A DNA stretch of 64,000 nucleotides from contig JBAYJA010000004.1 in assembly GCA_041665345.1 (NCBI GenBank), positions 48,122-112,121 on the forward strand, given 5' to 3'. The position numbers and the translations under genes are program-made. Source of the stretch: Patescibacteria group bacterium. Its GTDB lineage: Bacteria > Patescibacteriota > Patescibacteriia > PEXW01. Within the stretch, counting starts at the first letter, position 1. Every line of letters starts with the position of its first letter. Below the pieces are notes generated by a model. It saw only the letters and a list, made by a program, of their open reading frames with translations, did not search any database and was not told where the DNA came from. Positions 615 through 61,125 of this stretch are shown in pieces.

Positions 615-2117
615 CTACTGCTGCCCAGTTGGTGGACTTGTCCGTCCAAAGTCGTCATTCGACGACGCAGGCGGATGGAGAAAATCAGCTGGTTGCTCAG
701 GGGTTTGCGGAGGTTGCTGCGCTGATGCAGTCCCAACTCTGGATTGCAGGCTCCGCTGCAACTCCTGGGCCTCTTGTTGATGAGAAAACTGCTGCTCAAT
801 GGACGCCTCCAGAGAGTGCGCCGCCTGAATGGTACGGACCAATTCTGATTCCTTGCGTAACGTCTCCTGTTCCAATTTATGGATATCATGGATCACGTCA
901 CCTGCCCGCCGGCGCCAGCGAATGACCAGCCAGGTTGCAAGAACCAGCACCAGGAGCCCGGCAATAATAAGTGCTACGTTGGTGAAGAGGGTATTCTGCA
1001 GCAAAGGTGTGCGACCAATAATGGATCCGCTCTGCGCAGCCGCAACTGTGAAATCCAACTTCCCATCCGTGGAATTTCCCGCTTGGTCAAACGCCCGCAC
1101 CAACACTTGGTACCGACCGGCAGTCAGCTCTGGGAGACGAACTGGGCTCACCACTTCGGTGAAGAATGGGGTTGCTTGGTTTGGATCATCCAAGGCCAGG
1201 AGCTGCATTTCGTAGTGATCAATGCCAGACATGGCATCGGTGGTCAGGAACTTCAGCTCGGGTCGCTTGCCTGGTTCTGGCGTGGGGGGGTCAACCGTGG
1301 GGGTAAAGGCAGCTGGCGGCGTCCCATCAATGAGCACAGCACCGTGGCTGGTGCCGCCCCAGCTGGTTACTTTTGCGCGCAGGTGGAAGTACCACCGACC
1401 ATCTCGGTCAGCGGTGACCGAGGTGCTGCGTGCGGGCGTGGCATCTTGGCGTTCGGGTGGCGTGGTACGCGGGTTTTGATCAAAGACGTAACTGTACCCC
1501 ACGGCATTTGGGACTTCATCCCAGTTGTACTCCACGGTTCGGTTTTGGTACCACGTATTCTGGTCGGGGTGGGAAGGCGAGGAAAGCACTGGGCCTTCTG
1601 GTGCAGCCAAGTTCAGCGTAAAATTTGCATCCCCACGAGAGTTAAGAATATTCGTGCCTTGGCCATCATTCGCCAGCACTTGCGAAGCGCTGGTGAAAAC
1701 GAGCTTGGCCGTCCCAGGTGCAGTCACCCGGAAGGTAATGGTACTCATTACCCCGGCATCAGTTTTGATGCCCGGATTTGGCAAACCACCTTGGAAGGAA
1801 ATTGTGCCCGCGGTGTTGGAGTAGGTTGGCTGGCTTACCCAAATGGAAACGAAGGACGTGCCGGCTGATGGGTTCACCACTTGCAAGCGCGAGGCCGGAA
1901 AGGTAATGTCCGCCCGCACCGCATTTACGGATTTTCCACCCGTGTTCACCAAAACGGAGACGTTGAAGGTGCTCCCAACGGTAAATGCGCCGGTTGCGGG
2001 TGAGAAAAGCAAACTCGCCCCATCTGCGGCGTGCATGGAGTTTGGAAGAAAGTACAGCGTCAGGGCGAAGAACGCAATGATACTCGCTTTACGGATTGTG
2101 CTTTTTCGTACCTCCAT
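615..2117 (-). CDS. Cohesin-like domain surface protein, paralog 2 (signal peptide, cohesin-like beta domain, SPSHP-WY module, C-terminal TM helix plus cytoplasmic coiled-coil tail)
   Basis: 500-aa ORF with ATG start. N-terminal signal peptide MEVRKSTIRKASIIAFFALTLYFLPNSMHA. Cohesin-like signature SVLVNTGGKSVNAVRADITFPASRLQVV...GTISFQGGLPNPG...ITFRVTAPGTAKLVF. TM helix LFTNVALIIAGLLVLVLATWLVI followed by RRRAG. Confidence 0.6.
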   Translation of the reverse strand: MEVRKSTIRKASIIAFFALTLYFLPNSMHAADGASLLFSPATGAFTVGSTFNVSVLVNTGGKSVNAVRADITFPASRLQVVNPSAGTSFVSIWVSQPTYSNTAGTISFQGGLPNPGIKTDAGVMSTITFRVTAPGTAKLVFTSASQVLANDGQGTNILNSRGDANFTLNLAAPEGPVLSSPSHPDQNTWYQNRTVEYNWDEVPNAVGYSYVFDQNPRTTPPERQDATPARSTSVTADRDGRWYFHLRAKVTSWGGTSHGAVLIDGTPPAAFTPTVDPPTPEPGKRPELKFLTTDAMSGIDHYEMQLLALDDPNQATPFFTEVVSPVRLPELTAGRYQVLVRAFDQAGNSTDGKLDFTVAAAQSGSIIGRTPLLQNTLFTNVALIIAGLLVLVLATWLVIRWRRRAGDVIHDIHKLEQETLRKESELVRTIQAAHSLEASIEQQFSHQQEAQELQRSLQSRVGTASAQQPPQTPEQPADFLHPPASSNDDFGRTSPPTGQQ

Positions 2118-2147
2118 ACCCAGTAGTATAGCGCGTCTGCTCCAGTT

Positions 2148-3266
2148 TTACCGCTTCTTCCTTTGCACCCACCAGGCTGCTCCAAGAAGAGTGAGGGCAA
2201 TGACTGCGCCACCGCCAATCCACACCCACTGCGGCACGCCAGCTGCGGAAGCAGCAGGAATGAACGCCACCCGCACGTTCCCAGCTTGATCGTACGCACG
2301 GACGGTCAGTGTAAACCGTTGATGGACATCGCTCACCTGGTAGGGGCTTGCTGCTGGTTGAAATGCTCCATCCCCTTCCTGCACTTCGTATCGCTCTATC
2401 CCAGATGTACGATCCTCAGCTTGGAAAACCAAAGCGAGTTTGCCTGGAATGACGTCTCGCCTCAACTGCGGGGTAAAGGGCTCTGGCTGAGTGGTGTCAA
2501 TGAGTACCCGCCGCCGAACCAATGCACCCCACGTATCATTAGGTAGCTTTTCTTGGATGGTAAAGTAGTACGCACCGTCTGCCTGACTGGGAAATGTAGT
2601 CTCACCTACGAACCGGGCTTGCTGCACATCGGGCACTGCGTTGCGGTCGGTGGTGAGCAGAAACGCGTACGGTGTCTCCTTGGCCGCTTGCCACTGCATG
2701 CGCACGGTGCTGATGGCATACCACTGATGCTCATTGGGATGCGATGGTGAAGTAATGCCCAGGGTATCTGCAGTCACGACAACATCGACGTAGAGCGAGC
2801 GCAAACGGAGGGCAGCTTTCGTTCCCAGACCGTCATTCAGGTACACCCCAGCTGTTCCGCCATCAATGCTTAGTTGGGTAGTGCCAAGTTTCTTGGCCCG
2901 GAAAATGACCTGCAGTACCCGGCCGTCAATAACGTAACTCCCATTCGGAATCCCACCGGCAAAGGTAATCACTCCGGTTGCTGGATCGCTCTTTGGCTCT
3001 TCTGGCCAGAGCGAAAGCACAGAACCAGCTTTCTCCAGGCCAACTATTTCCAGAGCATGAGGATCGTACGTCAACCGCGCCTGCACAGCATTGATCACCT
3101 CTCTTTCGCTATCAACGCGCACTTCAACAATGAAGGTTTGGTCTTGCCCAACCTGCGGATTAGCGGTTTGAACAGTCAGAGTTGCTGCATGTGCAAGATT
3201 GGGCACACTGCACAGCAGGACCGCGCTCCAGAGCACAACGCCAATTCGCATGATATGTGTGCGCAT
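2148..3266 (-). CDS. Cohesin-like domain surface protein, paralog 3 (signal peptide, cohesin-like domain, C-terminal TM anchor)
   Basis: 372 aa. Signal peptide ending LAHA. Segment TFIVEVRVDSEREVINAVQARLTYDPHALEIVGLEKAGSVLSLWPEEP...GVITFAGGIPNGSYVIDGRVLQVIFRAKKLGTTQLSIDG matches the cohesin pattern. C-terminal VWIGGGAVIALTLLGAAWWVQRKKR is a TM helix. Confidence 0.6.
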   Translation of the reverse strand: MRTHIMRIGVVLWSAVLLCSVPNLAHAATLTVQTANPQVGQDQTFIVEVRVDSEREVINAVQARLTYDPHALEIVGLEKAGSVLSLWPEEPKSDPATGVITFAGGIPNGSYVIDGRVLQVIFRAKKLGTTQLSIDGGTAGVYLNDGLGTKAALRLRSLYVDVVVTADTLGITSPSHPNEHQWYAISTVRMQWQAAKETPYAFLLTTDRNAVPDVQQARFVGETTFPSQADGAYYFTIQEKLPNDTWGALVRRRVLIDTTQPEPFTPQLRRDVIPGKLALVFQAEDRTSGIERYEVQEGDGAFQPAASPYQVSDVHQRFTLTVRAYDQAGNVRVAFIPAASAAGVPQWVWIGGGAVIALTLLGAAWWVQRKKR

Positions 3267-3268
3267 AG

Positions 3269-4129
3269 CTATTTCGTTCCCGTCCAGAAGTAGAGCATGA
3301 CGCTGAAGTCAATGATGTTCACCGTGCCATCCTGGTTAATATCTGCCCTGGCATTTGCTGGATTCCGCTTATTCCAGTAGAACAGCAAAATACTGAAGTC
3401 TACCAAGTCCACTTTCCCATCACAGTTAATATCCCCTTTCGTCTTACCCGCGCAGAGTTCCGTAGTCGCTACCTGGAAAGCCACGGAGCGGCTGAATTCG
3501 GAAACTGACCCGTCTGGATCAGTGGCTTTGGACCGGACACTGTGCGAACCAATCTGCAAATCAGAAGCTTGGAACTGCTTTGACCAAGCACCTGCGGTTG
3601 AAGCTGATACCTGCGAGGAAGTTTCGGTTTCTGAACTCACGTAAATCTGCACCGTGCTGCTGGGGCTCGTTGTTCCAAAAACCGTGATGGTATCTCCCAA
3701 GCGCACTTCGGTTTTATCCGCGGCAATGGTGGGTCCCAAGAATATCCCGGTAATGGTCACGGAAGTTCCGGTTGCCAAGGTCAAAGTAAAATTCGAGGTT
3801 GGTCCGTCTCGGCCATCTTGGTCCACGCTGAAGACCCCAAATGTGTACGTTCCTGCGGTTAACCCACCAATGGTCACGTCAAAGCGTGCTTGCGGGTCAG
3901 CGGGCACTTGCACTGCAGTAACCCCATTTTGCAAAATCGTCACCGTCGACCCTGGGTAGGCAATACCTTTGAGGATGACAGACGTTGCCGTTGGTTCCGG
4001 TGGTGCAATACTGGGCACAGTTGCTGAAACGGAAACCGTAATGTCAGCATTGGCTGGCAGGACAAGCAAAGGAAAAACAAGAATCATCACTAGGAGTGAT
4101 CGGCCAAGAGTTCGCACCACAGGGCGCAT
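3269..4129 (-). CDS. Secreted Ig-like repeat protein with C-terminal dockerin module
   Basis: Start trimmed to ATG 4129 (MRPVVRTLGRSLLVMILVFPLLVLPANA, signal peptide); 4195 is an upstream in-frame ATG that would overlap the preceding gene. The C-terminus has two dockerin-type Ca-binding repeats: GDINCDGKVDLVDFSILLFYW and ADINQDGTVNIIDFSVMLYFW. Confidence 0.6.
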   Translation of the reverse strand: MRPVVRTLGRSLLVMILVFPLLVLPANADITVSVSATVPSIAPPEPTATSVILKGIAYPGSTVTILQNGVTAVQVPADPQARFDVTIGGLTAGTYTFGVFSVDQDGRDGPTSNFTLTLATGTSVTITGIFLGPTIAADKTEVRLGDTITVFGTTSPSSTVQIYVSSETETSSQVSASTAGAWSKQFQASDLQIGSHSVRSKATDPDGSVSEFSRSVAFQVATTELCAGKTKGDINCDGKVDLVDFSILLFYWNKRNPANARADINQDGTVNIIDFSVMLYFWTGTK

Positions 4130-4142
4130 GTATTCGTTCTGC

Positions 4143-5207
4143 TTATTCTCCCGTCGGCGGCGTCTTGGTTGACGCGCGTCGGCGAATCCAAGCATTGTAC
4201 TTCAGGATTGCAAAAATCAGCAGGAAGAGCACGACCAGCAACCCAACTCCGTACACCACCAAGACATGCCAAGGGAGTACCCAGAAGCTTATTGCAGCTG
4301 AGCTTTGCACACCCGCCGCGGGCACTGTGGTTGCCAGTTCTGACGTGGCTTGCCCCGTTCCAACAGACAGCGTTGCGGTGTACTTCCCAAGGGCAAAGTT
4401 CTTCCGTTCATTACGGAATGCAGTCCAGAAGCGGTTCCATCCATTGCCGTACAGATCTTCGTTCTGTCCGGTTTGCCAGGTCGTCTTGTACGTTCGGGAG
4501 GATTTGGGCAACGTTGCGCCTTTGGGTTCGTTGAAAGCCAAAAGGGCGGACTGCTTCTTCAAAGTGTTGGTGATGGTTACATTCCCTACTGGCTTGAGGT
4601 GAATATTCCCCGTATTCTGGTACACCGTGGTGAATTCAATTGGTAACTGAGTGAATGTATCCTTGGCAACAGAAAAGCTGGTAATTACCGCGCTCTCCTG
4701 CACATCACCCTCAACTTTAACGAATAGGAGGGTGCCAATCCCCTGCGCAACAGCCACTTGGGGCTTCGCGTTGCCTTCCGCGGTTGGCGGCGTGGTGGAA
4801 AAAGCAACCACACCGTAGTGACCACCCGGCCCAGCATTCGCGGGGACATCAACGGTTACCAAGACTGCTTGGCGACCCTGAGGTTCCAGGACGATTGGCG
4901 CGGGATCCAGTTTCACCCAGGTAGCAATGTCTTCCTTCGGTGCTGCAAAGTCATACACCGGTATTCCAGCTTCGGGACCTGAAGTAAACGTGGTGGTGTT
5001 GATGTACAGCACCTGCTTTTGGTCAGTTTCATTGTAGAGTTTCACCACAAAGTCAGCCTGATTCCCAGGCTGGGCGGTGAACTCAATGGAAGGCGGGCTA
5101 ATCGTCAACGCTTGGGCTGTAGTGATGCTCGTAAGCACACCAACAAAACCAAGGGTAACAACCAGGAAACCTCGAACCAAAAATGAAATTTTCTTTGCTC
5201 TTTCCAT
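4143..5207 (-). CDS. Secreted protein with C-terminal membrane anchor (CscA/DUF916-like or PapD-like surface-complex component; inference)
   Basis: 354 aa with a signal peptide. N-terminal beta domain ISPPSIEFTAQPGNQADFVVKLYNETDQKQVLYI. C-terminal hydrophobic helix LVVYGVGLLVVLFLLIFAIL followed by KYNAWIRRR. Confidence 0.5.
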   Translation of the reverse strand: MERAKKISFLVRGFLVVTLGFVGVLTSITTAQALTISPPSIEFTAQPGNQADFVVKLYNETDQKQVLYINTTTFTSGPEAGIPVYDFAAPKEDIATWVKLDPAPIVLEPQGRQAVLVTVDVPANAGPGGHYGVVAFSTTPPTAEGNAKPQVAVAQGIGTLLFVKVEGDVQESAVITSFSVAKDTFTQLPIEFTTVYQNTGNIHLKPVGNVTITNTLKKQSALLAFNEPKGATLPKSSRTYKTTWQTGQNEDLYGNGWNRFWTAFRNERKNFALGKYTATLSVGTGQATSELATTVPAAGVQSSAAISFWVLPWHVLVVYGVGLLVVLFLLIFAILKYNAWIRRRASTKTPPTGE

Positions 5208-5339
5208 GCGTTTATTTAGTCAAAAACTGCCCTCATAGTATACCACTTTTCCTGCCCACTCACTACTCCATCATACAACTCGCCTGAAGCGTCAATAATC
5301 GAGGCTTCAGGCGAAGAGCGGTAAACGTCGAAAAGTCAG

Positions 5340-6431
5340 TTAGAAAGTGCCGGTTGCGATATAGGTAATCGCTGTGGAGTAGCTGCCGGCTTCTGTGGCC
5401 GCCGAAATATTCGCAATGTAGTGCGCGTCGATGGTCGCAGCTGCTGTAGGTCCGGCAATGGACAGGATAGCCGTGGTAGTGCCAGCAACGAACTTGAAGT
5501 TATTCGCGGACTCATCGTAGGCTGCGGTATCAGCAAAGGTGAAGGTAGCAGCGTTATCGTCAAAGCCTATTGCAAACTGCTCGGAGCCTGGGGTGCCATC
5601 CGCATCACCAGCAATGGTTGCTACGGAAATTGTGTCGCCACCGCTCGTCAGTGTGGCACCGGTGTACGTCAGGGCAACACCGTCTGTGGCATTTGTCCCT
5701 AATTGGAAGGTATGCGCAGCCTCTGGTGTAGTATCGCAGGCCGCAGGTGGTGTACCATTCGCCCAACACTCTTGCGTGGCATCCAAAACCCCAAACCCAA
5801 TGGCCACGTCCGAAATGGAGAAGGTGACGGATGGGTCAACCGTGGCGGTAACATTCACTGTATCATCATCCAGAATGGCAACTGCAAAAGAACCGCTGTC
5901 TGACGTGGTGGTGATGTCAATTTTGTAGACCGCTGCTGAGCTGGGATTGGTAATCTCGTTATTGTCGATGGTAAAGGCGATAGCACCAGCAGGAACCGTA
6001 TCGCCAGTGCAGACAGTTAACGTGTAACTTTCTCCTGGGGCACTCGCGTCAACGGATGGGTACACCTCATCTGTTGCACCAGCACATGCACCAATGTTTG
6101 CAACAATGGTCAAACCCGAAGCAGCCGAAAAATCCGTACTTGCAATAGTACCATCGAGAGTAAAGGAATCAGCCGCTGTGTCGAATGCGATAGTAATTGT
6201 CTGCGTGGCAGTGAGGTTCGTTGCGGTAGTAAAGGAAAAAGCATGCGTCCCAGCTACACTCTTCTCCAAACGGGACATGGTGTCCTTCATCCCGGTCAGT
6301 GCAGCTGCACCCACTGGCTGAATTGGCATAAAAAACCCAAGTACCCCAAGCACCGTAAAGAGCACAACGACGGTTCGGGTCGTGCCACGTTTCATGCCAC
6401 GTTTCATAAGTAGCTTGATGGGATTTTTCAT
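5340..6431 (-). CDS. Secreted protein carrying the conserved C-terminal beta domain shared with the giant protein (SCPU-like / WxL-like; inference)
   Basis: 363 aa with a signal peptide. The last roughly 165 aa (TFSISDVAIGFGVL...CWANG...GVALTYTGATLTSG...IAGDADGTPGSEQFAIGF...EAGSYSTAITYIATGTF) align with the C-terminus of the 6656..17620 protein. Confidence 0.6.
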   Translation of the reverse strand: MKNPIKLLMKRGMKRGTTRTVVVLFTVLGVLGFFMPIQPVGAAALTGMKDTMSRLEKSVAGTHAFSFTTATNLTATQTITIAFDTAADSFTLDGTIASTDFSAASGLTIVANIGACAGATDEVYPSVDASAPGESYTLTVCTGDTVPAGAIAFTIDNNEITNPSSAAVYKIDITTTSDSGSFAVAILDDDTVNVTATVDPSVTFSISDVAIGFGVLDATQECWANGTPPAACDTTPEAAHTFQLGTNATDGVALTYTGATLTSGGDTISVATIAGDADGTPGSEQFAIGFDDNAATFTFADTAAYDESANNFKFVAGTTTAILSIAGPTAAATIDAHYIANISAATEAGSYSTAITYIATGTF

Positions 6432-6517
6432 AAAAATTTGCCTAAGGTAAAGACTTTTTATTTTTAACTATCTACAGTATAACACAGTTTCTTGAAAAAA
6501 GCAAATCCTACCCTTTT

Positions 6518-6646
6518 GTCATTCTGTGAGACGGAGTAGAGACTGTAGTCTCTCTGCAGATACAGACCAGAGGCTTCCGCCATAGGCGGATCTGCTGAGA
6601 AGTCTCTACTCCGATATATCATCATTCACGTAAGTCGAAGAATGAC
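6518..6646. repeat. MITE-like palindromic element with about 9-bp terminal inverted repeats GTCATTCTG / CAGAATGAC; contains the GGAGTAGAGACT...AGTCTCTACTCC hairpin
   Basis: Ends gtcattctg (6518-6526) and agaatgac (6639-6646). Internal 12-nt arms ggagtagagact (6534-6545) and agtctctactcc (6601-6612). Related element at 50506..50623. Confidence 0.4.
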
Positions 6647-6655
6647 AGCATATTC

Positions 6656-9600
6656 CTAGAACGTCGTCGTTGCAATGTACGTGACATTTGTACTGTATGC
6701 ACCCGCCGTCGTAGCACTGGAAATGTTACAGATGTAGTAAACACTAGCCGTCTCGATTACCGTAGACCCAGCTTCAGACATCAACGTGGTTGCAGTGCTG
6801 GGAACGAACGAATAATTGTCACTTGCTTTCTGGTACGCAGAGGGAATGGTTGCATTGCCATCTGTGGTTATTGATAAAGCAAATTGTTCACTACTTGGTG
6901 TGCCATCTGCATCTCCTGTAAAGGTTGCGGCAGTAATATCCTCGGGCCCTGACAGGGTAGACCCAAAGTAAGTTAATGCATACCCGCTCCGAGCATTGGT
7001 GGTCACGGCTAATGTATGTGCGGACACGGCACTGGCAGAGCCGGTTGCCGCCCCATTTGCCCAACGGGCTGCTGCAGAGGAAAGTGTCCCAAAGCCCACC
7101 GCGGTATCAGAAATGCTGAAAGTCAAAGTATTAATATTCCAGCATGGGTTGTTGGTCGAATCGTAGTTTGTACCGTCTGTGGCATCAATGTCATCCCCTG
7201 GGCAGGCATTGGAATCACGTACATCCGTATTGGAGACGGTTTGCGTTCCCAGGCTATTGAGGTCCCACAGGGTTCCTGTGGTTGACGAACGCAAGAACAC
7301 GCGTGTGCCAGTTGCTTGGCCGTTGAAGGCAATATTGTTGAATGTATACGTACCGCCGGCCAGGAAGCGCAGCTTCGTATTTGCTGTCTGCGCTGTGAAC
7401 GTTGCTGCAGTTTCTGCCGCAGCCGCAAAAATGACAGAGGGCGAAGTGACCGGATCCGCACCGGAGCTATTGGTAATAGTGAGGTTATTGAACCGATCAC
7501 TTGCACCAGTCAATTGCCCATCAACCGTTTGCTGAGCGGCGCCATCCAGGGTCACTGTCCCGGTGTTGTCCGTGAAATCACCATTGTTCGTCCAGTTCCC
7601 CGCAACCGTGAAACTTGCGGTTGATGATCCATTCAGCAGGCCTTTTGAGGTAATTGTTACTGCACCATTGGCATCAAGAATCCGATCATTGGTTTCATTA
7701 TCTAGCGTCGTCACATTCGAATCACTCGCGTTCCCAATCGTGAGCGTTCCCGAAACAATAACCTGCCCGGTTCCACCCGTAGCAAACGTAACCGTACGGT
7801 CTGTGGCGCCTGAGGTTTCAAAGGAAAGATTATTGAACGTCCAGTTATTTGCATTTGCTGTGCTGCCAAAATTTTTAGCAGCCGCAACCCGATGCAAAAA
7901 TGTGCCACCTGACCGGGTTACGGTTCCACCCCCAGCCAATGTGCCATACATGGTGATATCTGTTGCGCCCAGCAAGCTCCCGGCGGTCACCGTCAGATCA
8001 TTCCCCACAGTCATGGCGGTATTCGTGGTCCACTCCCCACCGCTGCCGTTGAATACGAGGTCGTAAAAGTCGTCAAGATCGCCCATTGTACCACCAATGG
8101 TATTTCCAGTATCGGTCGCGGTAAAGGTGACTGTCGCCGATCGGGCCGTAAAAGAATCGTTATTTGTCCAGTTATTGCCAACCGAGATGCTGTTACTCTC
8201 ACCAGTTTTCGTATCCAGAACCCCGCCGGTGATCGTAATGTTATTCGTAACAACCAGCGGGTCCTCCACTTCAACGGTGAGGGTGTACGTCCCACCACCG
8301 TCATTCACAATGACGTTGTAGGGGTTTCCAGTGCCAACGGTAATAAGGTCTGTGGTGGCATTTGCAACGACCGTACTTGCAAGCGTCATAGTCAACGTGG
8401 ACTGATCAGGCGTGAAGGTTCCACCAGTCTGTAGGTCGAATTTCCCATCCGTATCCATGAACGTTTCATCAGTTTCCACATCATCGGTAGCGTCCAACGT
8501 CCCAACGATGGTTATGCCGCCCGTGCCAATATCCAGGTCGTAACCATTCGTATTGAAGATATCACCCGTCGGGATGGTTACTGACTTTGCAGTAAAGTCA
8601 GAACCCAAGTCCGTCGTACCAGGCGACAACCCAACCTGCACATTGCCCATATCCTGTTTCGGTGAGGTGTTATCCGTGAAGGTCATCGGTGTAGGATTCC
8701 CATCCATGATTAGAATGCCAGAACCTGTAGCTGCAGTGAAAGTCGTTCCCGTTGCAATGGTGAAATTACCGTAAACTGTAAGGTTGGCATTTGCCGCCTG
8801 CGTAAAGCCTCCCCCCGTGATGTCGAACGTCTTATTCACCAACACTGCGTCTGCGGTGGCAACGCTTCCACCAGACACTTCAAACTTCTGCAGTTCGTTT
8901 CCCGCAGCGGTGAGCGTCTTGGACGTGCCGTTCATCTTCAGGGTATTGTCAGTGGACGCCGTGTACGTCCCCCCAGTGAAATCCACGTTCCCACTGACGG
9001 TCCACACCCCCGTGCCCGAGGTAATCACTTCGCTTCCACCTCCAGTACCGGTGAAGTCAACATCCCCACCCACCGTGACCGTCGGGTTATTCGAGGCGCC
9101 AATCAGTGTGGCATCTCCTACACCATCGGTAATCACGTAAAGGTGTGAACTTGCGCCGGAAAGGGTGAACGACCCAGTGGGGAAAGTGAAGGTTTTTGCC
9201 GTGCCACTATTGGTGAACAGCTCTACCCGTCCACCATACGTCCGCGCGTCCAGAGTCGTGGACGCAATGTTCGCTGACGAACCATCGTAACGGACAATAC
9301 TACTGAGGGTTCCGCCCGTCCCTGGACCGGATGAAGCGTCGGTGAACCGCAAGGTTCCATCCCCGCTTATGGTTCCCGTGGTATTAAGCGTCAGCGTTCC
9401 AGGCGCATTCACAATTCGACCGCTACCAATAGATAGAGTGTCGCCATCTGCCACATCGAGCGCGCCAGACACCGTGAGATCCGACGTGCTCACTGTTATT
9501 GTCCCTGTGGAAGCAGGATTAATAGTAAGGTTGTTGAAGGTGGTTGCCGTGGATCCAGTTAAACTGTTCGACGTACCGGTCATGGTTATGGTGGATGTGC

Positions 9601-12600
9601 TCTGCGTAAAGGTACCGTTATTCGTAAGCGTCCCGGCAATGGTGTACACACTGTTCCCACCTGAGGTGAGCGCGCCGCCAATGGTCACATTCTTCGCGGT
9701 TACGGTTTCTGTGCCACCAATCGTCAACGTGGCGCCAGAGAGAATGCTCAGCGTGGCGCTGGTGTACGTTCCACCTGCCTGAGCAGCCAAGGTGGAGGAA
9801 TTTGCCGTGTGTACAATATTTTCATTATCATCAGCATCATACTGGCCCATGTTGGTTACCGTCACCGATGGATTGTCCACGCTCCCAATGGTCAGCACAT
9901 TTGTGTCCAAGACCAGGCCAGTAATGTTCCCCGACCCGTCATAATTCGTAACGGCTGTTGTTTCCGCACTATCGGCAACGCCATCCACAAAAACCGTAAC
10001 CGTATTCCCTGTGGCCACGGTAACGCCAGAAATAGTCCACGTTCCAGCCAAGGTTGTGGTTTGAGCTTGAATGCTCCCATTCACCGCTACTTTCACTGTC
10101 CCGCCTGAACTGTTCGACGTGCCAGCTACGTCTATACCACAGGTTGCGCCAGCACTGACTGTAATATTCGTATTTCCGCTATTCGTAGACTGGGAGAAGG
10201 TGGCACATATTGCTGCGCCAGCATTATTTGCATCGCTAATGTCTACGTAGGAAAGTGACGCTGAAGTTGGGTTGACGTTCCAAGCGTTGCCCACACTGGA
10301 TGATTGCAGGGTGATCAGCTGGCCCAAAGCTCCAGTGACTGTCCACGTACCCGCGATGGTCTGTGTTGTGGCAGCGGTAACGGTAATTACCTTTGCCGCA
10401 CCAATACTGGTGACCGAAAGATTATTGAAGGTTGTACTGCCGGCAATAGTTGAAGCCGCTGTAGTAGTAAGCGCAATGGTGCCGGAATTATGGGTGAACG
10501 TGCCAGCATTAGAGAAGCCGGCTCCAAAATTTGTGGTGGTAGCTGAGCTTGCCTGGAAAACCGTATCCGCCGCAATCGTCACATTACCGGTGACAGTGAA
10601 GGTTGGATCCCAGGTATTCACCTGGAAAATCGTAGTGCTGGAACCGGTGCCAGTGTTCAATAGGTCCAGCGTGGAGGCGATGGTCAGGGTTTGCGAACCC
10701 GCAGTGCCGGCAGTCACCGTGCGCCCCGCCGTCGTGCCACTATTATCAATTTCCACTTTTTGGTAATCCGTGCGGGCACCCATGGATTGATCAGTGGCCG
10801 TGGCGTCCATTCGTAAAATGAGACTTGCGCCCAGTGTCCCGCCGGTTGGGAAAGTTGTAGCACTTCGGTAGGTAAGCCGACCCGGGCCGTTGATAGTGCC
10901 GCTTAAGGTAAGCGTGGCGCCAGTGTGGGTAATAGTGCGGCCGGAACTAATGGTCAAGACGTTACTTGCTCCAGACAATAGTAGAGTATTTGTAACAGCA
11001 ATATCTGATGTTTGTACCGTTACAGCTCCACTGGCGTTTCCAATATCCAGGTCATAAAATGTTGTGCTACTTGAGCCGTCAATTGAGCCTGCGCTCCCTG
11101 TAAGACGTACTCGACTGTCATTATGGGTAAAAGTTCCGTTGTTCGTGAATGTCCCACCAACCGTCAAGTTTGATGTGGATGTAAATGTGCTTGGGGTCAA
11201 TGATCCAGAAATCAACAATGCATTACTTACGGTTAAGTTATTTGCAATACTCATGCTGCCACTCGACGTAAAATTGTAGAGTGTGCTACCTCCAGTATAT
11301 GCGGTTAATGTTTTTGAGGTGCCATCCATGATGACCGTATTCCCAGTTGACGCAACGTAACAATACGTAGCCAGAAAAGAGTTGCATGTTGCATCAAAAT
11401 TTCCTGAGATAGTCCAGATCCCAGAACCCGACGACACTGGTTCCGTGCCGTCGCCAGTACCCAATATATCAAAGTCACCACCAATATTCACCGTGGGATT
11501 ATTGGTTACACCGGTGACAGCCATATCCCCAGTGCCATTAGCATAGACGTAAAAGTGGCTACTGGCGCCAGAAAGTGTATACATTCCAGTGGCAAAAGTC
11601 GTAGTTCGACCCGTTGCGCCACTATTGAAGAACTCAACCGTGTTCCCATACGTCCGCGCGTCAAACGTCGTGCTAGCAATATCTCCACCAGTGGCATCGT
11701 ACCTCGTAATCGCACTTATGATTCCCACCGTACCTGGACCACCACTCGTGTTGGTAAAGGTGATGCGGCCCGGACCGGCAATGGTACTGGAACTTGTAAG
11801 CAATACGTTTGCTCCAGTATGCGTCAATGTTATCCCACTGGCTATGGCCAGCGTGGCGTCCGTGTTGACGAGGAGGGTATTTGTAACCGTCAAATCTCCC
11901 GTCTGCAAGGTCAGGGTACCTGTACTCACTGGGTCATAGCGAAGATTGTAGAGAGTCTGACCATTGCTGGTTATGGTTTTCCCAATACCGGTGGTGAACA
12001 CCGTTCCAGTCCCTGCATCCACGGTTAATCCAGAAGCCATTACAAAATTTCCATCGATATGTGTGGAAGACCCTAGCGTGTAGGTGGGTGTTCCACTTGC
12101 TTGCTGCAAGGTTAGGTTATTGAAGTTGCCTACGTAAATTGTGGTCGCACCAGTACCGCTGTATACAAAAGTTGAAGTGCCAGGAATGAGTACTGTGAAG
12201 CCAGACTCATCCACTATCGGTGTCCCTGAGCCGGACAGGGTCCAGGTTTTTGCCCCAGCATTGAGCGAGTGCATGTTAAAACTCTCCCCGGCGGCAGTTG
12301 CCTCAAGAGTAAGCACATTAGTGACAGTTACCCCGCCATTCCCTGTAGCTGTTGTGGTAAAAATGTTTCCCCCAGATTGCTCCAAAGTGAGGTTATAGAA
12401 TGTCCACCCAGTGGCACCACCAAAGTTCCCTGTCTCACTAAGCGTGAAAGTTGGTGTGCCGCTTGTAGTTGTTACCGTTCCATCACCTGTGACGGCCCCA
12501 CCATTCACGGTCATATCTGCATTTACAGTCAGGGTTGAACTCGTGTCCACGACAACATCCCCAGTGACGGTGAAAGTCCCAACTGCAACCGTGAGTGCCG

Positions 12601-15600
12601 AAGCCACACTCCCATTCCCCACAGTTAGGTTATTGGAAACCGTTGCAGCTTTCTGCAAAGTCGTTGTCGCGGCTGTCCCATCGCCAATCACTAAATTGTA
12701 AATGGTAATTGCTCCGCTGGCGCCATTGGTTCCCAAATTTCCAGTCCCGCGCATGGTTACGGTGGGAGTTCCACTGGATGCGATGATCCCGGTTGTCGTA
12801 TTTGTAAAGTCGCCGCCACCGACGGTCAGGTTTGCGCCAACCGTGAAGGTTGACCCAGTACCCACTGTCACATCACCGCCAGTTACAGTAGTCGCAGCGG
12901 AGCTCAATGCAGTGGTTGCCGTAGTACCATCACCAATCAGGAGATTGTAAAACGTAAGTGTAGGGGTTGTGCCACCACCAATACTCCCACTACCCCGCAT
13001 GGTTGTAGTTGCGGTCCCAGTGGAACGAGTAACAACAGCACTCGTGCCTGCAGTTGTAATATCACCGCCAGCAACAATCGTGTTTGCATCAATATTCAAC
13101 GTTGCCCCGCCATCCACCAAAATATCCCGGCCAATGGTATTCGTGGCGGTGTCGAGAGATGCCGTACCACCGTCATCTATGTGAAAATCTCCGCCTGTAC
13201 TATTGGTGGTCACGGTCCCGCCCGGATCGTACGTGTCACCCGCCCACACATGAAACTCCATGCCAGACTCCACGGTCAAGTTACCAGTAGTAACGCTATA
13301 CCGAACACCAACATTCGCTCCAGTATCAGCTGTCGCTAATTTTGCATTTGTCATGGGCCCTGCGTCTTCGTGACGCACCGAGGTGTGATCTTGATAAATG
13401 TGCAAATCAACAATATCTGACGTCGTGTCAGCAGCCAGGGTCACCGTTGTCCCCTTAATTGCTTCAACGCTATCAATGAAAATTGCAATTGGGTCTGCGG
13501 CGGTGCTTGGGCGAGCAGCTGCGATAGCAAATGAACCATTACTCAAGGTGCAGTCAGCGGTCTGCTCAGACGCACTGCCATTCACGGACGCACGGACGGT
13601 TATGGCATTTGCCGAACAGTCATACGCCGTTGGGGTTTCATTGGTGTAGATTTTCCCATAGATCGAAATGGATGCTGGCACATACTCAACTAAGAGCCAC
13701 AGCGTTGTTACCTGCAATTGTTCGGGAGAGAGGAGGTTGCTTGTATTTAAATTGCGAACACCGATTTGCGCGCTATCCAGGGTCGTCGTTGTCCAGGCGG
13801 TTAACTGCTGCGGCCGGGTATAGGCGGTCATGCCATAAATTCTTGGAATCGCCGAATGGTGCGACATCCATGTCGTTGTCGTGAAATTCTCTTTCGTCCC
13901 TTCAATAACCGCCCCACTCGCACTATCTTTCAATCGAACTGCGGTTGTGAAAGCCGACGTATTCCCGATGTTGGCACGCATACCAGCAGAAACCAGAGAA
14001 ATTGTGTCTGAAGCACCAATGGACTGTGTCGAACTATCAAAAAGATTAACGTCCGTAATAGTGTTCGCTGTGGCTGTGTACAGGTAAGTTGTTGCATCAT
14101 CTGGGTCTGCTTCATCCACATAGGTATAGTCATTCGTAAAACCCGTATTATCCCCGGCGGCATTTGGTTTCAGGTGTGCTATCGACCCTGCGCCAGGGTA
14201 TCCATTTTGCGTTGTACCAGCATTCTGGTTCACCGCCACATCATCGAAGTACCAATCGCCTTGCGTTTGCGCTTCAGAATTTAGGTTGCCACCAAGTGCA
14301 ATTGTTGTTACACCATTAAGAAGGTCTCTGGTTGAGCTGGATCCAAAATTGGTTCCATTTATTCTGCCTTCAACCGTATCAGTTGCACCCGCACCAGACG
14401 AATTTATTTGGAATTCCACCCGGTACCATGTGCTGGTACTCAAGGCGGCTGACGTGCCAATCGGCGTCCCGCCAGAATCTTCATCGTGTAGCTCCAGTGC
14501 GCCAGTGCTGGTCAGCACCAGGAACACTCGGTCTGTAGTCCCGGAATCTCGAAACGACATGATGCGATTACTCGCACTCGGCAAGGTTTCAATCCGGAGA
14601 TACGCCCGGGCATAGTATGGGCCGTCTGCATTCGCTGCCACAAAATCTTGATTCACACCTTCAGCCGAACCCGAACTCATCCCGTTAATGCGCAACGATG
14701 CGCCTCCAGAGCGGTAGTAGGTTGCAGTTGTGTTGATGGTTGGTCCGCCTGCAATCCCCGCCCACTCTTCACCCGCGCTTACCGTTTGCATTTCAAAACC
14801 AGATGACCACAACCGACCACCTTCTGCTGGCTCATACTCCACCAGCAACCACATCGTCGTTACCAGGAGATCGGGAATTGCATCAGTTGCGGTCACGCGT
14901 AATAAACCATCGTCAATGTTCGCAGCGGTCATTACATCGTAATCTGCAGCCGAGGTTTGATCACCGTAGGAAGTTTGCTTGTAGGTTCGTGGAGCCGCGT
15001 TGCCATTGGTGGTATAGGCGGTCGCGCTATCAGAAATACTCGTTGACTGGTCAACTGCATTCCCACTTGGGATTTTTACCTGCAGATTATGGGCACCAGC
15101 TGCTGCACTGAGACGCGTATACCGAATCCCAGCTTGCGTCAAAATTATTCTATCTTTCGCATTCATACCCTGACTTCCTGTACTTTCTAGGGACACCTCA
15201 AGAAAATCCGTCCCGGCGTCACTATCACAGGTCACCGTTGTTGTCGTATCATCTGGTCCACCAGCGCCACGATCATTTACGGCATCCCATGAGCTAGTTG
15301 ACCCACTGCAGGTATTCGAAGAAGCGCCGCTTGGTTGTCCATCTGGCATGAGGTGTACAATTTTTCCCGCCCCTGGCCAGTTTTCCGGTATGCTTGGGGT
15401 GATGCCGGCATCGTCAGAATTAATTGCCAAATCGTCCCAGAATATTGTTGAGGCTCCACCCGTATCAGTTGAAAGCGTACCAATGCGTACAACGTTGGAA
15501 CCATTCGCATGGTTCACCGTGCCTGACGAGAACGTCACGCCATCCACCTTGGCCTCAAGGTAGGTAGTGCCAATCGTTGTGGTGTCACTCCGAAACTCAA

Positions 15601-17620: not shown

Positions 17621-17950
17621 TCGAGTTCGGTAGGTCACTTGCACCCGTTGGTGCTGCCGCGTTTGTAACTCATGCCGCATTGCCCGTTGGAAACTGTGCG
17701 TGCGGGCACGGTACACCTTTCGCGCTGACTGGGGAGCTCCGGCAACCGATGACTTTTTTGCAACTACAGTTTTCTGTCGAATCACCCCGCGTTTTGCAAC
17801 AACTCGACGACCTCTGAGTCCAAGTGGACGCGACTTTAGGTACGTCGTTGTGCTTTGCGGTTTGGGCATGGAGGAACGTTTTGTTCGCCGAACGAAGCAC
17901 TTGGCCTTCCGTGTCTTTATACAAGAATCCAATGTATATTATGCCACATT

Positions 17951-18845: not shown

Positions 18846-21767
18846 ATGGCACATGCACATGCCTCAGCACTTCGTCATCAGTCAAAAGCATCTGTACCTC
18901 GGTTTAGTGCTTTTTTGGTCATTATTCCTGCTGCCTTAGTTGTCTCCGGATTACTCTTCTCCCTTCCCCACTTGCAAGCCGGTGGAGCAGGCTTGAGTTT
19001 TCTTGGCTTCAAAAAACCAGCGCCTAGCCAAAAGTACGTCTGCCCCAGTGCCTCCTATACAAAGGACTTTACTAGTGTCTTGAAAAATGGAGTGCCAGCC
19101 AGTTCCGCACAAACCGTAGTGGAAACCAATGCGCGGTTACTGGGCCAAGCTGAGCCAAGTAAGGATCTCATTGCGAGCCGCACAGATCTCACTGCCCGGA
19201 AAACTGCACTCCTTGGTCTCATGGCAACCGCACCAGACAAAGCCTTAGCTGCAGTTTTGAGCCCAAATATTGGGGATGCGTACCAAACATGGACGACGAA
19301 CTGCGTGGAAGAACGCGTGACCGTGACGGGAAAAGTGACGGAATATGATTATACTGCGGCGAAAGGCATTGCTCCAAAAGGGCCCGATGCACTGTTCATG
19401 TTGCAAACTGTTTCTGGTAGCACTCTTGCGCTTCAACCAGCCAAAGCACTGCACACCGCCTTTCTTACAGGCGATACGCTAACCATTACCGGCTTTCAAC
19501 TTGATGACCGTATAGTTTTTGATGGTCGGTCTTCAGTGACAGTGGATCCATCCGGCCTGGGAACTGGCTACACTGTAGCGAAGGAGAAGACTAATCGTGA
19601 TGCAGTAACCGGCCCCCAAGAGACTATTGTACTGCTGGTGAATTTCCAAAATACACCTCAGCCGGCATATCCGGTTTCAACTATTGAAAACATCGTCTTC
19701 TCACAAATGAACAGCTACTACCAGCAGAATTCGTACAACAAAATTAGCATAGTTGGTGATGTGGAAAATTGGCGGACGATCCCGATGGACACGACCTGCG
19801 ATTTTGCCTCAACCATTGGGCCAGTGGTCCAAGCTTTTGATGCCGACGTTGACTTTCGTCAGTACGAACGGCTCGTGGTGTTTGCGCCGCTTGGACCCTC
19901 ATGCCCTTTCATTGGCATCAGCAGCGTTGGGCAAACCACGGTAGCGACGAATGATGGTCCGGTTGTTATGTCAACGTCCTACATCTTGTCCAATTACGCC
20001 GGCGTTGCGCTAACCGCGCACGAGTACGGCCATGGTTTGGGTCTGCACCATGCAAGTTTTTACAATTGCCCAAATACCCCCTACCAAGAAACTGGCTGCG
20101 ATATTACTGAGTACGGCAGTCCATACAGTACCATGGGTAATCATGCACTCTTTGGCTACTTCAACGCTCTGGAAAAAGATTTCCTTGGGTGGTTTGTACC
20201 ATCCAATATCGAGACGGTAACCGAAAGTGGCACCTATACCATAGATCACCTAGAAGTTGCATCAACCAATCTGAAGGCACTGAAGTTTCAGCGCTCAGCA
20301 AATGACTTTTTGTACGCTGAATACCGGCAACCAATTGGGCATGACACAGGATTTGGATCGACGAATGCCTATGACGGTGCGCTCCTCCACATTCGCGCAA
20401 ATACGGGCGTATCTGGCCCACAGGCGAACCGTTCTTTCTTGCTTGATGCTGCGCACCCACCAGTGTGGGGAAGCGCAAATGACGCAGCGTTGACCGTTGG
20501 ACAAACTTTTGTTGACCCCCTGACCAATACTTCTGTAAAGACAGTCGAAAAGGGCGACGGGGACGTAGACATCCAGGTGCAAATTGGCAAACATGACTTT
20601 ACCGCACCGCAAGTGAGTATTACATCGCCAGCTGAGGGCAGCACGGTGAGTGGCCAATTTACCGTCACTGTTGACGCACAAGATGCATCTGGAATCGAAA
20701 AAGTTGTGTTGCAGAACGGGTCACTGTTATTCCGATCTGAAATTGGCACTGACACGCAAGCCCCGTTTGCATTTAACGTCGACAGTTCCATGTTCCCAGC
20801 CGGGATCGCGACTCTCGTTGCAGTTGCCTATGATAAGTCTGGTGCGCCCTATGGAGTGGCAAATAACTCTGGGAGCAGTGGCTTCTTTACGGTGAATATC
20901 GTGGGTGGGGATGTAACTCCTCCGACCACCAGCATGACAGCTCCGCTGAACAATACCGCTGTACGAAATCTGGTCACCGTCAGTGCCCAAGCAGATGACA
21001 ACGGATTCATTAGCCAGCTGAAGCTCTTCGTGGATGGGGTACAGAAGTTCTTCCAATTTGGTGATGCCTCCAGCATCTCCGGGGTACTGGATTTAACCCA
21101 AGGGACGCACACCGCGTATTCGGTTGCAGTAGACCAAGCAGGATTAACGACGCAAAGCGCAACTTCAACTTTCGTCGTTGACAATACTGCCCCAACCGTC
21201 AGCCTGGTGGATCCTGCTCAAGGAGCTTCCGTTTCGGCCAGCATCGCACTCACCGCCACCGCTGCGGACAATGACGCTATTCAGAAAGTGGTCTTCGTTC
21301 GCGACTCTGGCACGGTCATTGGTGAAGATCCCACCGCGCCATACAGCGTTACCTGGGATACCTCACTTGTTCCTCCTGGGCCACACACCCTTGGAGCCGT
21401 GGCGTATGACCGCGCAGGGAATACCGCAACATCAAGCACGCACGCAATCACTGTGCAGGCCACTGCTACCTACGTCTGCGGGGATAGTGACAGCAACCAA
21501 ATAGTCACCATCTCCGACGCCGTCCACCTCATCAACTACATCTTCAGCGGTGGACCCGCCCCAAGCCCCTTGGTGGCAGCGGACGCCGACGGGAGTGGCG
21601 TAGTAACCATCTCCGACTCCGTCCACCTCATCAACTACATCTTCAGCGGTGGGCCGACACCAAGCTGCGTTACCAACCCACCCAGTGTGAAACTGGCACC
21701 GGATCCAACCGAAGGCCAAACCTTGCAGAGTTTCAAAGCTGCACACCCAGAGATTTTTAGCCAGTAA
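18846..21767 (+). CDS. Secreted zinc metalloprotease (HExxH) with Ig-like/BIG repeats and C-terminal dockerin module
   Basis: 973 aa. Signal-anchor LVIIPAALVVSGLLFSL. Zinc motif TAHEYGHGLGLHHA. Repeated Ig-like domains (FTAPQVSITSPAEGSTVSGQFTVTVDAQDASGIEKV...). C-terminal dockerin repeats GDSDSNQIVTISDAVHLINYIFSGG and ADADGSGVVTISDSVHLINYIFSGG. Confidence 0.7.
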   Translation: MAHAHASALRHQSKASVPRFSAFLVIIPAALVVSGLLFSLPHLQAGGAGLSFLGFKKPAPSQKYVCPSASYTKDFTSVLKNGVPASSAQTVVETNARLLGQAEPSKDLIASRTDLTARKTALLGLMATAPDKALAAVLSPNIGDAYQTWTTNCVEERVTVTGKVTEYDYTAAKGIAPKGPDALFMLQTVSGSTLALQPAKALHTAFLTGDTLTITGFQLDDRIVFDGRSSVTVDPSGLGTGYTVAKEKTNRDAVTGPQETIVLLVNFQNTPQPAYPVSTIENIVFSQMNSYYQQNSYNKISIVGDVENWRTIPMDTTCDFASTIGPVVQAFDADVDFRQYERLVVFAPLGPSCPFIGISSVGQTTVATNDGPVVMSTSYILSNYAGVALTAHEYGHGLGLHHASFYNCPNTPYQETGCDITEYGSPYSTMGNHALFGYFNALEKDFLGWFVPSNIETVTESGTYTIDHLEVASTNLKALKFQRSANDFLYAEYRQPIGHDTGFGSTNAYDGALLHIRANTGVSGPQANRSFLLDAAHPPVWGSANDAALTVGQTFVDPLTNTSVKTVEKGDGDVDIQVQIGKHDFTAPQVSITSPAEGSTVSGQFTVTVDAQDASGIEKVVLQNGSLLFRSEIGTDTQAPFAFNVDSSMFPAGIATLVAVAYDKSGAPYGVANNSGSSGFFTVNIVGGDVTPPTTSMTAPLNNTAVRNLVTVSAQADDNGFISQLKLFVDGVQKFFQFGDASSISGVLDLTQGTHTAYSVAVDQAGLTTQSATSTFVVDNTAPTVSLVDPAQGASVSASIALTATAADNDAIQKVVFVRDSGTVIGEDPTAPYSVTWDTSLVPPGPHTLGAVAYDRAGNTATSSTHAITVQATATYVCGDSDSNQIVTISDAVHLINYIFSGGPAPSPLVAADADGSGVVTISDSVHLINYIFSGGPTPSCVTNPPSVKLAPDPTEGQTLQSFKAAHPEIFSQ

Positions 21768-45972: not shown

Positions 45973-46077
45973 GGGCGTACGTATGTAAAAAAAGAAACAG
46001 TCTCCATATGGACTGCTTGGCTAGAGTATACAGGGAACCTGGGGAATGTCAAGGTCAGTAAATAAGGAGGGAGTGTT

Positions 46078-50480: not shown

Positions 50481-50505
50481 CCGGATCTTCCTCCCTCTCC
50501 TCTCT

Positions 50506-50623
50506 GTCATTCTGAGTCTTCGACCTGCCCGCCGTACTTCGTCGCGAAGGCAGGCGGGAGAATCTCCGAACAATTTTTACAAACCATGGAGATTCTTCAT
50601 CCCGAAGCGGGATTCAGAATGAC
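50506..50623. repeat. MITE-like palindromic element with terminal inverted repeats GTCATTCTGA / TCAGAATGAC (relative of 6518..6646)
   Basis: Ends gtcattctgag (50506-50516) and tcagaatgac (50614-50623). Internal mini-palindromes cttcgtcgcgaag and atcccgaagcgggat. Confidence 0.4.
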
Positions 50624-50676
50624 AAAGAAGAGACCTCTACAGCTCTACGGCTTTATAGCTCTACGGCTCATCCCCC

Positions 50677-60561: not shown

Positions 60562-61125
60562 ATGAGTAAACGTGATTGGATCATCGGTGGCCTGTTTTTC
60601 CTGGCAACACTTGTTATGTTCGCCATTTGGAAAGACAAAATGCTGGAGGTGGATGATGAGCAAACGCGAGCTGCCCAGGTTGATTACTCCATTCCGATTC
60701 TGGAGCTGCTGGCACAGCACGGGTATGATTACTCAACATCAGAAAAGCGAATTGTCGCTATCGATGATCGAAGTGATACAGCGTTCACTTTTGTTCCGGT
60801 GACGTTCTACTGTTTTTCAGACACCGGCCTAACGCCCGATACAATCTTGCAATTCTTTACGGCAGAGGGAATGGAACCTGCGACCCTTCGGGAGGCGTGC
60901 ATAGCGCTTGGTACAAATTCCCTGGTGTCTGGGGATTTCTGTGTCATCGCTTTAGGAACGAAGATGAAGGATGACCGATTCGTCAATGATGACTATAGTA
61001 CTTTTCGATTTGCTCGGTTGACGTATTGCTTGGGTGTCAAAGGTGCACAAATGGCACTGGACAATCCGATGTTGCCCGACGCAATAAACTACTACGCTGC
61101 AAAACCGAGAGCGAAGCAAACGTAA
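60562..61125 (+). CDS. Hypothetical signal-anchored protein, flanked by 32-bp direct repeats
   Basis: GGAGG ribosome-binding site. N-terminal TM segment IIGGLFFLATLVMFAIW. The repeats are at 60425..60456 and 61187..61218. Confidence 0.45.
   Translation: MSKRDWIIGGLFFLATLVMFAIWKDKMLEVDDEQTRAAQVDYSIPILELLAQHGYDYSTSEKRIVAIDDRSDTAFTFVPVTFYCFSDTGLTPDTILQFFTAEGMEPATLREACIALGTNSLVSGDFCVIALGTKMKDDRFVNDDYSTFRFARLTYCLGVKGAQMALDNPMLPDAINYYAAKPRAKQT

Follow-up and report, generated by a model that had tools for sequence, protein, structure and literature searches.

An intergenic hairpin doublet in a Patescibacteria genome and its probable relationship to the Ssn-related repeats of Neisseria

Two short palindromes in a 64,000-nucleotide stretch of a Patescibacteria genome (contig JBAYJA010000004.1, positions 48,122 to 112,121; hereafter, the window), the nearest named relative of which is Ca. 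Kerfeldbacteria, have similar ends, which raises the question of whether they are two copies of one mobile element and, if not, of what kind each of them is. A reading of the window made from its letters (the sequence-only reading) had located them at 6518-6646 (element 1, 129 nt) and 50506-50623 (element 2, 118 nt), coordinates and sizes that our analysis confirmed, and had grouped them as one element resembling a miniature inverted-repeat transposable element (MITE). This grouping does not hold: the interiors of the two elements are unrelated, and by this comparison they are not copies of one MITE. Our preferred reading, to which we assign a probability of about 0.78, is that element 2 is an inverted pair of hairpins of the Ssn-related motif (SRM) type, the same kind of repeat as NTS/dRS3 of Neisseria. 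Element 1 is most likely a relic or hybrid, in which two 5' half-arms of this type appear to close a different, genome-specific hairpin. The Ssn/SRM system is already known, having been described in 2025; what is new is element 2 as a further example and a subtype of the repeat that the published search pattern misses.

Element 2 and a widespread family of hairpin doublets

Element 2 starts with GTCATTCTGAG and finishes with TTCAGAATGAC. Its arms are complementary at 11 of 13 positions, and a repeat search of the window returned the palindrome, flanks included, as 23 nt at 87%. These ends agree with the gtcattctg(a/t)g and (t)cagaatgac that had been claimed for both elements, whereas element 1, which starts with GTCATTCTGTG, finishes with CGAAGAATGAC and not with (T)CAGAATGAC; its terminal inverted repeat consists only of TGTCATTCT/AGAATGACA (8-9 bp). 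The interiors of the two elements are not homologous, and only a short TCGAC module and 8-11 bases at the termini are common to both. Each is intergenic, with 9-53 nt separating it from stop codons, in line with the placement right after stop codons that had been described: element 1 is found 9 nt past the stop of a 3758-aa minus-strand open reading frame (ORF), and element 2 is found 25 nt past a pilin-like ORF and 53 nt from a convergent YraN ORF. The folding check proposed in the sequence-only reading was also positive, as both elements fold far better than shuffled sequences, both as RNA (z -4.1 to -7.0) and as DNA (z -5.4 to -6.8; -5.4 and -6.6 for element 2).

The coincidence of ends within the window proves nothing by itself. 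When up to one mismatch is allowed, the 10-mer end motif occurs 5 times in the window versus 3.35 expected, which is no enrichment, and two inverted pairs of some 8-mer arise in 82 of 150 window shuffles. The coincidence gains meaning only from a large family outside the window, which supplies an independent definition of the motif; when this externally defined motif is used, two inverted GTCATTCT pairs, as observed in elements 1 and 2, appear in 0 of 3000 shuffles.

The outside family was retrieved with the doublet pattern GTCATTCTGA-N75-105-TCAGAATGAC from viral contigs and from a species-representative genome collection (596 Gb). The pattern was found in 9 viral contigs and at no fewer than 120 loci in the genome collection, where we estimate that chance alone would yield approximately 17 over the full 596 Gb. 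At least 120 loci in at least 10 bacterial phyla thus carry the 20 terminal bases of element 2 at a similar spacing. Among the matches listed, the hosts include Acidobacteriota, Chloroflexota, Bacteroidota, Ignavibacteria/Chlorobi, Planctomycetota, Deltaproteobacteria, Clostridia, Verrucomicrobia, Beta- and Gammaproteobacteria, and Saccharibacteria. All 127 listed copies follow one plan, T-GTCATTCTGAG-(mini-hairpin)-GAAGAATC, stem extension, variable loop, and the mirror image to CTCAGAATGAC-A, the commonest mini-hairpin being CGNAGCG, and 98 of the 127 do not overlap ORFs of at least 120 aa, which make up 80% of the locus bases. Beyond the boundary of the doublets and of the longer units described below, only a T before and an A after are conserved. 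A search of 16 loci with canonical copies against Rfam, at gathering and permissive thresholds, yielded only tRNAs and one riboswitch. Element 2 agrees with the common plan, with inverted arms T-GTCATTCTGA-(mini-hairpin)-GAAGAATC, and by this agreement it belongs to a genuine family of extragenic palindromes that is repeated on a huge scale.

Membership was assessed with R1, a covariance model of the arm that was built from loci picked by protein similarity (see the next section), gave 267 matches in the 254 kb of these same loci, and was scored at every window position. The right arm of element 2 matched at 50587-50627 on the minus strand (35.5 bits, E=4.4e-7), and the left arm matched at 50502-50568 on the plus strand (22.5 bits, E=1e-3) with a 43-nt insertion in the arm loop; beyond element 1, which is discussed below, R1 found nothing further of significance in the window. 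Both arms read TGTCATTCTGA...AGAATC, that is, they are oriented with 5' GTCAT, the palindrome and, directly after it, C, which is the arrangement that characterises an SRM. Judged by these matches, element 2 is a bona fide doublet. Its parts are as follows.

50506..50623, no strand: element 2, an inverted doublet of two probable SRM-type hairpin arms without a gene between them (sequence, R1 matches on both arms, architecture as in the 127 doublets, DNA fold)
50505..50564, plus strand: left arm, T-GTCATTCTGAG, TCTTCGAC module, inserted G+C hairpin (about 50524-50558), then GAGAATC (R1 match)
50591..50624, minus strand: right arm, T-GTCATTCTGA-ATCCCGCTTCGGGAT-GAAGAATC, canonical, with a 6-bp mini-hairpin (R1 match)
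50558..50598, no strand: inner stem GAGAATCTCC / GGAGATTCTTC around a 20-nt A+T-rich spacer (folds; comparison with the gene-containing units)

R1 also matches doublets at loci of a 77%-identity Patescibacteria relative (L217, E ~1e-7) and of a Saccharibacteria contig (L047). Further copies of the family of element 2 in relatives, one of the checks that had been proposed, therefore exist; the search for empty sites, which had also been proposed, found no clean one (see below).

The arm hairpin is under selection, as shown by the pattern of substitutions. At the two variable positions of the stem, Watson-Crick pairs occur in 207 and 211 of 215 arms, and the stem pair types observed are ATTCT/AGAAT, ATCCT/AGGAT, AGCAT-type, ACCCT/AGGGT, ATACT/AGTAT, and ATTCC/GGAAT. 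In an alignment of 80 arms, 98% of the cells are paired, and both-sided changes occupy 80 cells versus 18 in shuffles, none of 500 shuffles being as high; this covariation signal is lost when the partner column is slid. G·U-type pairs are nearly absent, fitting pairing as DNA rather than as RNA. Of 14 simple units, 9 combine arms of different stem types, each arm keeping its own pairing. Therefore, arm-to-arm complementarity is not the constraint, and what had been described as terminal inverted repeats is instead an inverted pair of hairpin motifs that are independent of each other and often differ in stem yet remain self-complementary.

The consensus arm, ATTCT-GA-GC-GNA-GC-GA-AGAAT, begins with a stem of 5 bp, continues through a tandem G·A step and two G-C pairs, and is capped by a GNA triloop; its commonest tip is GCGNAGC, in which a C-G pair closes the triloop. 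Tandem G·A steps and GNA triloops give hairpins extra stability, and d(GCGAAGC)-type GNA mini-hairpins were reportedly characterised by Hirao and colleagues in the 1990s. The commonest arm tip resembles this mini-hairpin, which differs in being a structural motif rather than a genetic element, and a corresponding stability of the arm is assumed here. As a side observation, a hairpin CCATGAACC-ACTCGCTGCGCTCGG-GTTCATGG is located at 27819-27850, directly after a tRNA gene (27748-27818); its minus-strand tip, CGAGCGCAGCGAG, is the tandem-G·A/GCGNAGC core of SRM arms with another outer stem.

A GIY-YIG nuclease gene between the arms

An all-against-all clustering of the ORFs at the doublet loci (~130) revealed one small family located directly on the elements, namely stand-alone GIY-YIG proteins (PF01541) of ~95 aa. 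The only other recurrent ORF families at these loci are ABC-transporter and two-component proteins, and no recurrent transposase family was detected. At locus L033, the GIY-YIG gene lies between a left and a right arm, beside an ordinary short element, and the copies at loci L032 and L075 are bordered by short elements that are complete. The generality of this arrangement was examined at 80 metagenomic loci picked by protein similarity alone, the DNA motif being unused, with arms called as the 11-mer with up to two substitutions within 250 nt of the gene. Arms were present at 79 of the 80 loci (on both sides at 67, on one side at 12, and on neither at 1), compared with our estimate of ~6% per side for an arm near the gene by chance. 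The simplest arm-gene-arm units are 351-488 bp in total and consist of a boundary T, a GTCA-arm, 20-60 nt, the ORF, ~20 nt, and an arm ending in TGAC followed by a boundary A. The position of the spacer in the inner stem of element 2 is the site of this gene in the full-length units. In some units (e.g. L033, 3344-3372), the frame of the gene enters the right arm, where the TGA of ..CTCAGAATGAC is its stop codon (peptide ..DSSLRSE*). These arms therefore give rise to numerous spurious short ORFs in annotations.

The GIY-YIG protein and an ORF of N. gonorrhoeae are 49% identical (tblastn, E=4e-18). NTS hairpins, some of them arranged as ~105-bp inverted doublets like element 2 (CGTCATTCCCGCG..GCGGGAATC), flank the gonococcal ORF. 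The NTS repeat of Neisseria, CGTCATTCCCGCGMAVGCGGGAATCYRG, contains the older dRS3 repeat, and the wider SRMs flank ssnA, which encodes a 94-aa single-domain GIY-YIG protein (cd10448) (Chenal et al. 2025, Nat Commun 16:2388, PMC11893778). The same study, using the Neisseria and Wolbachia homologues for its biochemistry, found that the hairpin is bound by SsnA only as single-stranded DNA (ssDNA) and in one orientation only, with a cut a few nt upstream, whereas double-stranded DNA and RNA are not cut and RNA is not bound. Binding depends critically on the C that follows the palindrome and cutting on the three bases that precede it, and mutation of Y6, Y17, or E64 of SsnA abolishes cleavage (PMC11893778). 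Invariant residues in the family found here are Y7, Y17, R27, H31, E64, and N83, of which Y7, Y17, and E64 correspond to SsnA Y6, Y17, and E64. A comparison with NCBIfam yielded no specific family for this nuclease, and its nearest solved structures are UPF0213 proteins. On this correspondence, the ~95-aa protein is a homologue of Neisseria SsnA (hereafter, Ssn, encoded by ssn) with its catalytic residues kept. A 77%-identical homologue was also found on a plasmid of Planktothrix agardhii (NZ_LR882964.1; locus L223, 18.5-19.5 kb), where it is flanked by doublets of the subtype of element 2 and placed between an MmeI-type restriction-modification gene and DISARM drmA, within a defence island.

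The likeness between the two systems thus extends from the oriented 5' (C/T)GTCATTC, palindrome and then GAATC to the extragenic location and the position on both sides of a ~94-aa GIY-YIG gene. However, the stem of the type found in element 2, ATTCT-GA-...-GA-AGAAT, contains, besides the tandem G·A step, an inserted mini-hairpin that varies, whereas NTS has a continuous ATTCCCGCG stem. The systems also differ in that the host of element 2 belongs to the Patescibacteria (Candidate Phyla Radiation, CPR), with no ssn gene in the ~69 kb read and a low observed copy number.

Several observations weigh against the assignment of element 2 to the Ssn system or against the mobility attributed to its family. 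The published SRM pattern, HGTCWYN(0-2)YYVSBRHN(0-5)WNVSBRGN(0-2)RNCYNB, a search aid derived from 29 genomes (PMC11893778), has 0 matches in the window and finds neither element 1 nor element 2; the canonical arm also fails, whereas an NTS control matches. R1 in turn detects Neisseria NTS weakly (E=0.086), and because of this the link to NTS rests on the shared GTCATTC...GAATC frame, the protein homology, and the gene association. Standard nearest-neighbour DNA parameters predict the fold of the consensus arm, but give the isolated 28-nt arm only -1.9 kcal/mol. There is one confirmed doublet, i.e. one with two significant arms, in the 64 kb, and the R1 score of element 1 (6514-6596, plus strand, 7.7 bits, E=7.8) is not significant. 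No ssn homologue was detected in the window and ~5 kb more (~69 kb of the 1.076-Mb contig), nor in the loci of relatives. The check for target-site duplications at the copy boundaries, which had been proposed, was negative for both elements, the flanks being ACCCTTT / GCATATT for element 1 and CTCTCTC / AAGAAGA for element 2. Finally, no clean empty site for element 2 was found among relatives at 76-81% identity, which have a different gene order and no homologous junction.

Regarding the first of these points, the published pattern matches only 1 of the 80 loci with ssn homologues, and its failure at element 2 marks, as far as can be judged from these loci, a divergent tandem-G·A subtype rather than exclusion from the system. 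Surveys made with this pattern undercount the family because the very common subtype GTCATTCTGAG..GAAGAATC escapes it.

If element 2 is an SRM doublet, each arm, T-GTC-ATTCT-GA-(G/C mini-hairpin)-GA-AGAAT-C, would fold alone in ssDNA, with a GNA-type loop or a longer hairpin at its tip. Given the inverted arms, each strand of element 2 would carry exactly one forward arm at its own 5' edge. A strand may become single-stranded during replication, repair, or DNA uptake and might then be cut by Ssn; because the arms are inverted, either strand would be cut just outside element 2. In N. meningitidis, SsnA lowers transformation by NTS-bearing DNA (PMC11893778), and in Neisseria the repeats limit the recombination of incoming DNA. 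A comparable limitation of recombination or DNA uptake in this CPR host would depend on a resident ssn gene.

Element 1 and other explanations

Both ends of element 1 carry GTCATTCT, but the GAAGAATC half is missing, as is a C following a palindrome; element 1 hence lacks the arrangement that characterises an SRM. The sequence-only reading had observed that its 3' arm mirrors the 5' arm of element 2. This is correct apart from 6 nt that have been removed: the right end of element 1 on the minus strand, GTCATTCTTCGAC, equals the left end of element 2, GTCATTCT(GAGTCT)TCGAC, minus these 6 nt. Its parts are as follows.

6518..6646, no strand: element 1, probably a relic or hybrid, in which two SRM 5' half-arms close a composite hairpin (sequence, folds, R1 7.7 bits with E=7.8, shuffles)
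6517..6525, plus strand: left half-arm TGTCATTCT, then GTGAG, without a 3' GAAGAATC partner (sequence; no significant R1 match)
6634..6647, minus strand: right half-arm TGTCATTCTTCGAC, equal to the left arm of element 2 minus GAGTCT (6 nt) (direct sequence comparison)
6532..6613, no strand: interior, a long hairpin with arms CGGAGTAGAGACT / AGTCTCTACTCCG (repeat families D2, I1, I7)

The interior belongs to a second, apparently genome-specific palindromic family, ACGGAGTAGAGACTnnAGTCTCT, which is also present at 54106-54163 and 60334-60390. This family, of the form CGGAGTAGAGACT..AGTCTCT, occurs as single copies or inverted doublets in three intergenic regions.

We therefore have to ask whether element 1 is related to the doublet family at all, or is simply a genome-specific hairpin with 8-9 nt ends that match by chance. 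The insignificant R1 score, the ease with which shuffled windows yield two inverted pairs of some 8-mer (82/150), and the origin of the interior from another repeat family would all fit such a coincidence. However, with the externally defined motif, two inverted pairs occurred in 0/3000 shuffles, the conserved T before and A after are present at element 1, and its right end is the left arm of element 2 bar the 6-nt deletion. We regard a chance resemblance as possible and rather doubtful. The reading of element 1 as a relic or hybrid would imply that it is decayed or composite, with the 3' half of the arm gone, including the C after the palindrome, and that it would not be expected to be a substrate of Ssn.

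A second alternative is that both elements are factor-independent bidirectional terminators, or other RNA-level structures at gene ends, with only incidentally shared ends. Their position directly 3' of stop codons, their strong folding as RNA, and their neighbourhoods (element 2 between convergent genes, element 1 between a giant gene and the promoter region of the next gene) are what would be expected of terminators. However, neither hairpin is followed by a T/U tract, a terminator scan was silent at both elements, and Rfam searches at gathering and permissive thresholds returned nothing at element 1 or element 2 and one tRNA only in the whole window; the canonical copies elsewhere also had no Rfam match. 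Moreover, terminators would not be expected to have a 25-nt arm that is conserved over at least 10 phyla and linked to a single nuclease gene, there are almost no G·U intermediates in the covariation, and SsnA does not bind RNA (PMC11893778). This explanation is improbable in our view, and if either hairpin does act on transcription termination, this would be a secondary effect.

It is less probable still that the elements are classical MITEs, derived from an insertion sequence with a DDE transposase and mobilised through terminal inverted repeats with target-site duplication. They resemble MITEs such as the Correia elements in their size (~120 bp, within the range of ~100-150 bp), inverted ends, intergenic location, and possible effects on neighbouring transcripts, and rve integrase fragments are present 3-4 kb from element 2. 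Against this, the arms lack TA or any other target duplication, the interiors of the two elements are unrelated, and the ends are independent hairpins, which within one unit often differ and are still each self-complementary; in addition, the arms of the full-length units flank a GIY-YIG gene and not a DDE transposase gene, and no recurrent transposase family was found among the 120 loci listed.

The least probable explanation, REP/REPIN elements mobilised by RAYT, an IS200/IS605-type Y1 (HUH) transposase, has in its favour that an inverted doublet of self-folding hairpins is the exact REPIN layout and that both are extragenic ssDNA structures, but the ~130 doublet loci contain no recurrent family except ABC-transporter, two-component, and GIY-YIG proteins, the GIY-YIG gene is arm-flanked at 79 of the 80 protein-picked loci, and the arms begin with TGTCAT and have no 5' GTAG box. 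Two further readings were rejected: a hammerhead-like reading of CTGAGGAG..GAAG, in which the core misfits and Rfam is silent, and readings as an integron attC site, CRISPR, retron, or diversity-generating retroelement, none of whose core motifs or genes are present.

Genomic context, mobility, and implications

Element 2 lies at the YraN edge of a ~5-kb insert (about 45970-50680) that parts YraN from NusA in the window. In four loci of relatives at 76-77% identity, YraN is directly followed by NusA, and in an 81% relative (L216) it is followed by a different gene set. The insert contains a type IV secretion system-pilin-like gene, several hypothetical genes, and the rve fragments; it is strain-variable, and in the JGI strain L002 the content beyond the pilin gene differs. 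Both elements are unchanged in three near-identical strains. The alignment between L217 and L219 begins only after the L217 element, and an all-against-all megablast of the loci revealed only internal repeats of two viral contigs. Element 1 follows the 3758-aa ORF (6656-17932, minus strand), which has no Pfam match on record and lies within a cohesin/dockerin-like surface-protein cluster; a cohesin/dockerin/Big-like gene cluster then extends over 615-6431 (minus strand). These surroundings recall the dRS3 repeats and Neisseria intergenic mosaic elements (NIMEs), the units of which are short, bounded by inverted ATTC..GAAT hairpin repeats, and located near surface-protein and variable genes: here, element 2 borders the variable insert and element 1 follows a giant surface-type gene. 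However, single units are observed here, and no arrays.

Other repeats were found elsewhere in the window. A 99-nt tandem duplication (repeat family D1) is located at 21502-21665 inside a 973-aa ORF. A 60-nt direct repeat, 80% identical and containing the hairpin GGCGAGGTC-AAG-GGACCTCGCC, is present at 60412-60471 and 61174-61233, and flanks a 187-aa ORF (60562..61125) on both sides in a repeat-gene-repeat layout. A 123-nt palindrome at 53326-53448, with 49-nt arms that are 76% complementary and carry CCTCCCCTTTCGAAGGGGAGG-type hairpins, is intergenic and lies upstream of a cytidylate-kinase-like gene.

As for mobility, the sequence-only reading had suggested a non-autonomous mobile or REP-like family. 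REP-like is the better label, MITE being only an analogy, and it applies to element 2, element 1 not being a demonstrable member in view of the E value of 7.8. The non-autonomous idea would fit insofar as the doublets look like short versions of the arm-gene-arm unit, with which no DDE transposase is associated. NTS-ssnA-NTS has been likened to an insertion sequence and to REP/RAYT by its authors, and mobility was not demonstrated there (PMC11893778). The present analysis adds to the insertion-sequence analogy the compact units, the doublet form, and the conservation of the arm hairpin without arm-to-arm complementarity; it does not add a transposition event. With REP/REPIN-RAYT, IS200/IS605, and PATE, the Ssn-related elements would share, on paper, self-folding ssDNA hairpins, a small nuclease, the spread of an inverted doublet, and a gene flanked by its own repeats. 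They differ from them in that the Ssn enzyme is of the GIY-YIG and not the HUH/Y1 type, the arms are without a GTAG box, and transposition of Ssn units has not been demonstrated.

Gene-less doublets such as element 2 may represent the short form of the 350-490 bp arm-ssn-arm unit, whose nuclease probably spread them. A broader proposal, which we put forward tentatively and consider rather unlikely as it stands, is that the 350-490 bp units are autonomous mobile elements, the smallest known, with the ~95-aa GIY-YIG nuclease as their sole enzyme, that doublets like element 2 are their non-autonomous derivatives, and that the tandem-G·A subtype has spread through at least 10 phyla, including the reduced genomes of CPR bacteria.

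The arm-gene-arm units and the gene-less doublets offer good material on the mobility of Ssn elements. For annotation, the family accounts for a large class of the intergenic palindromes and spurious short ORFs that metagenome assemblies contain. For the organism itself, element 2 probably places a copy of the Ssn/SRM repeat in the Patescibacteria (CPR), small DNA-scavenging cells in which control of incoming ssDNA could matter.

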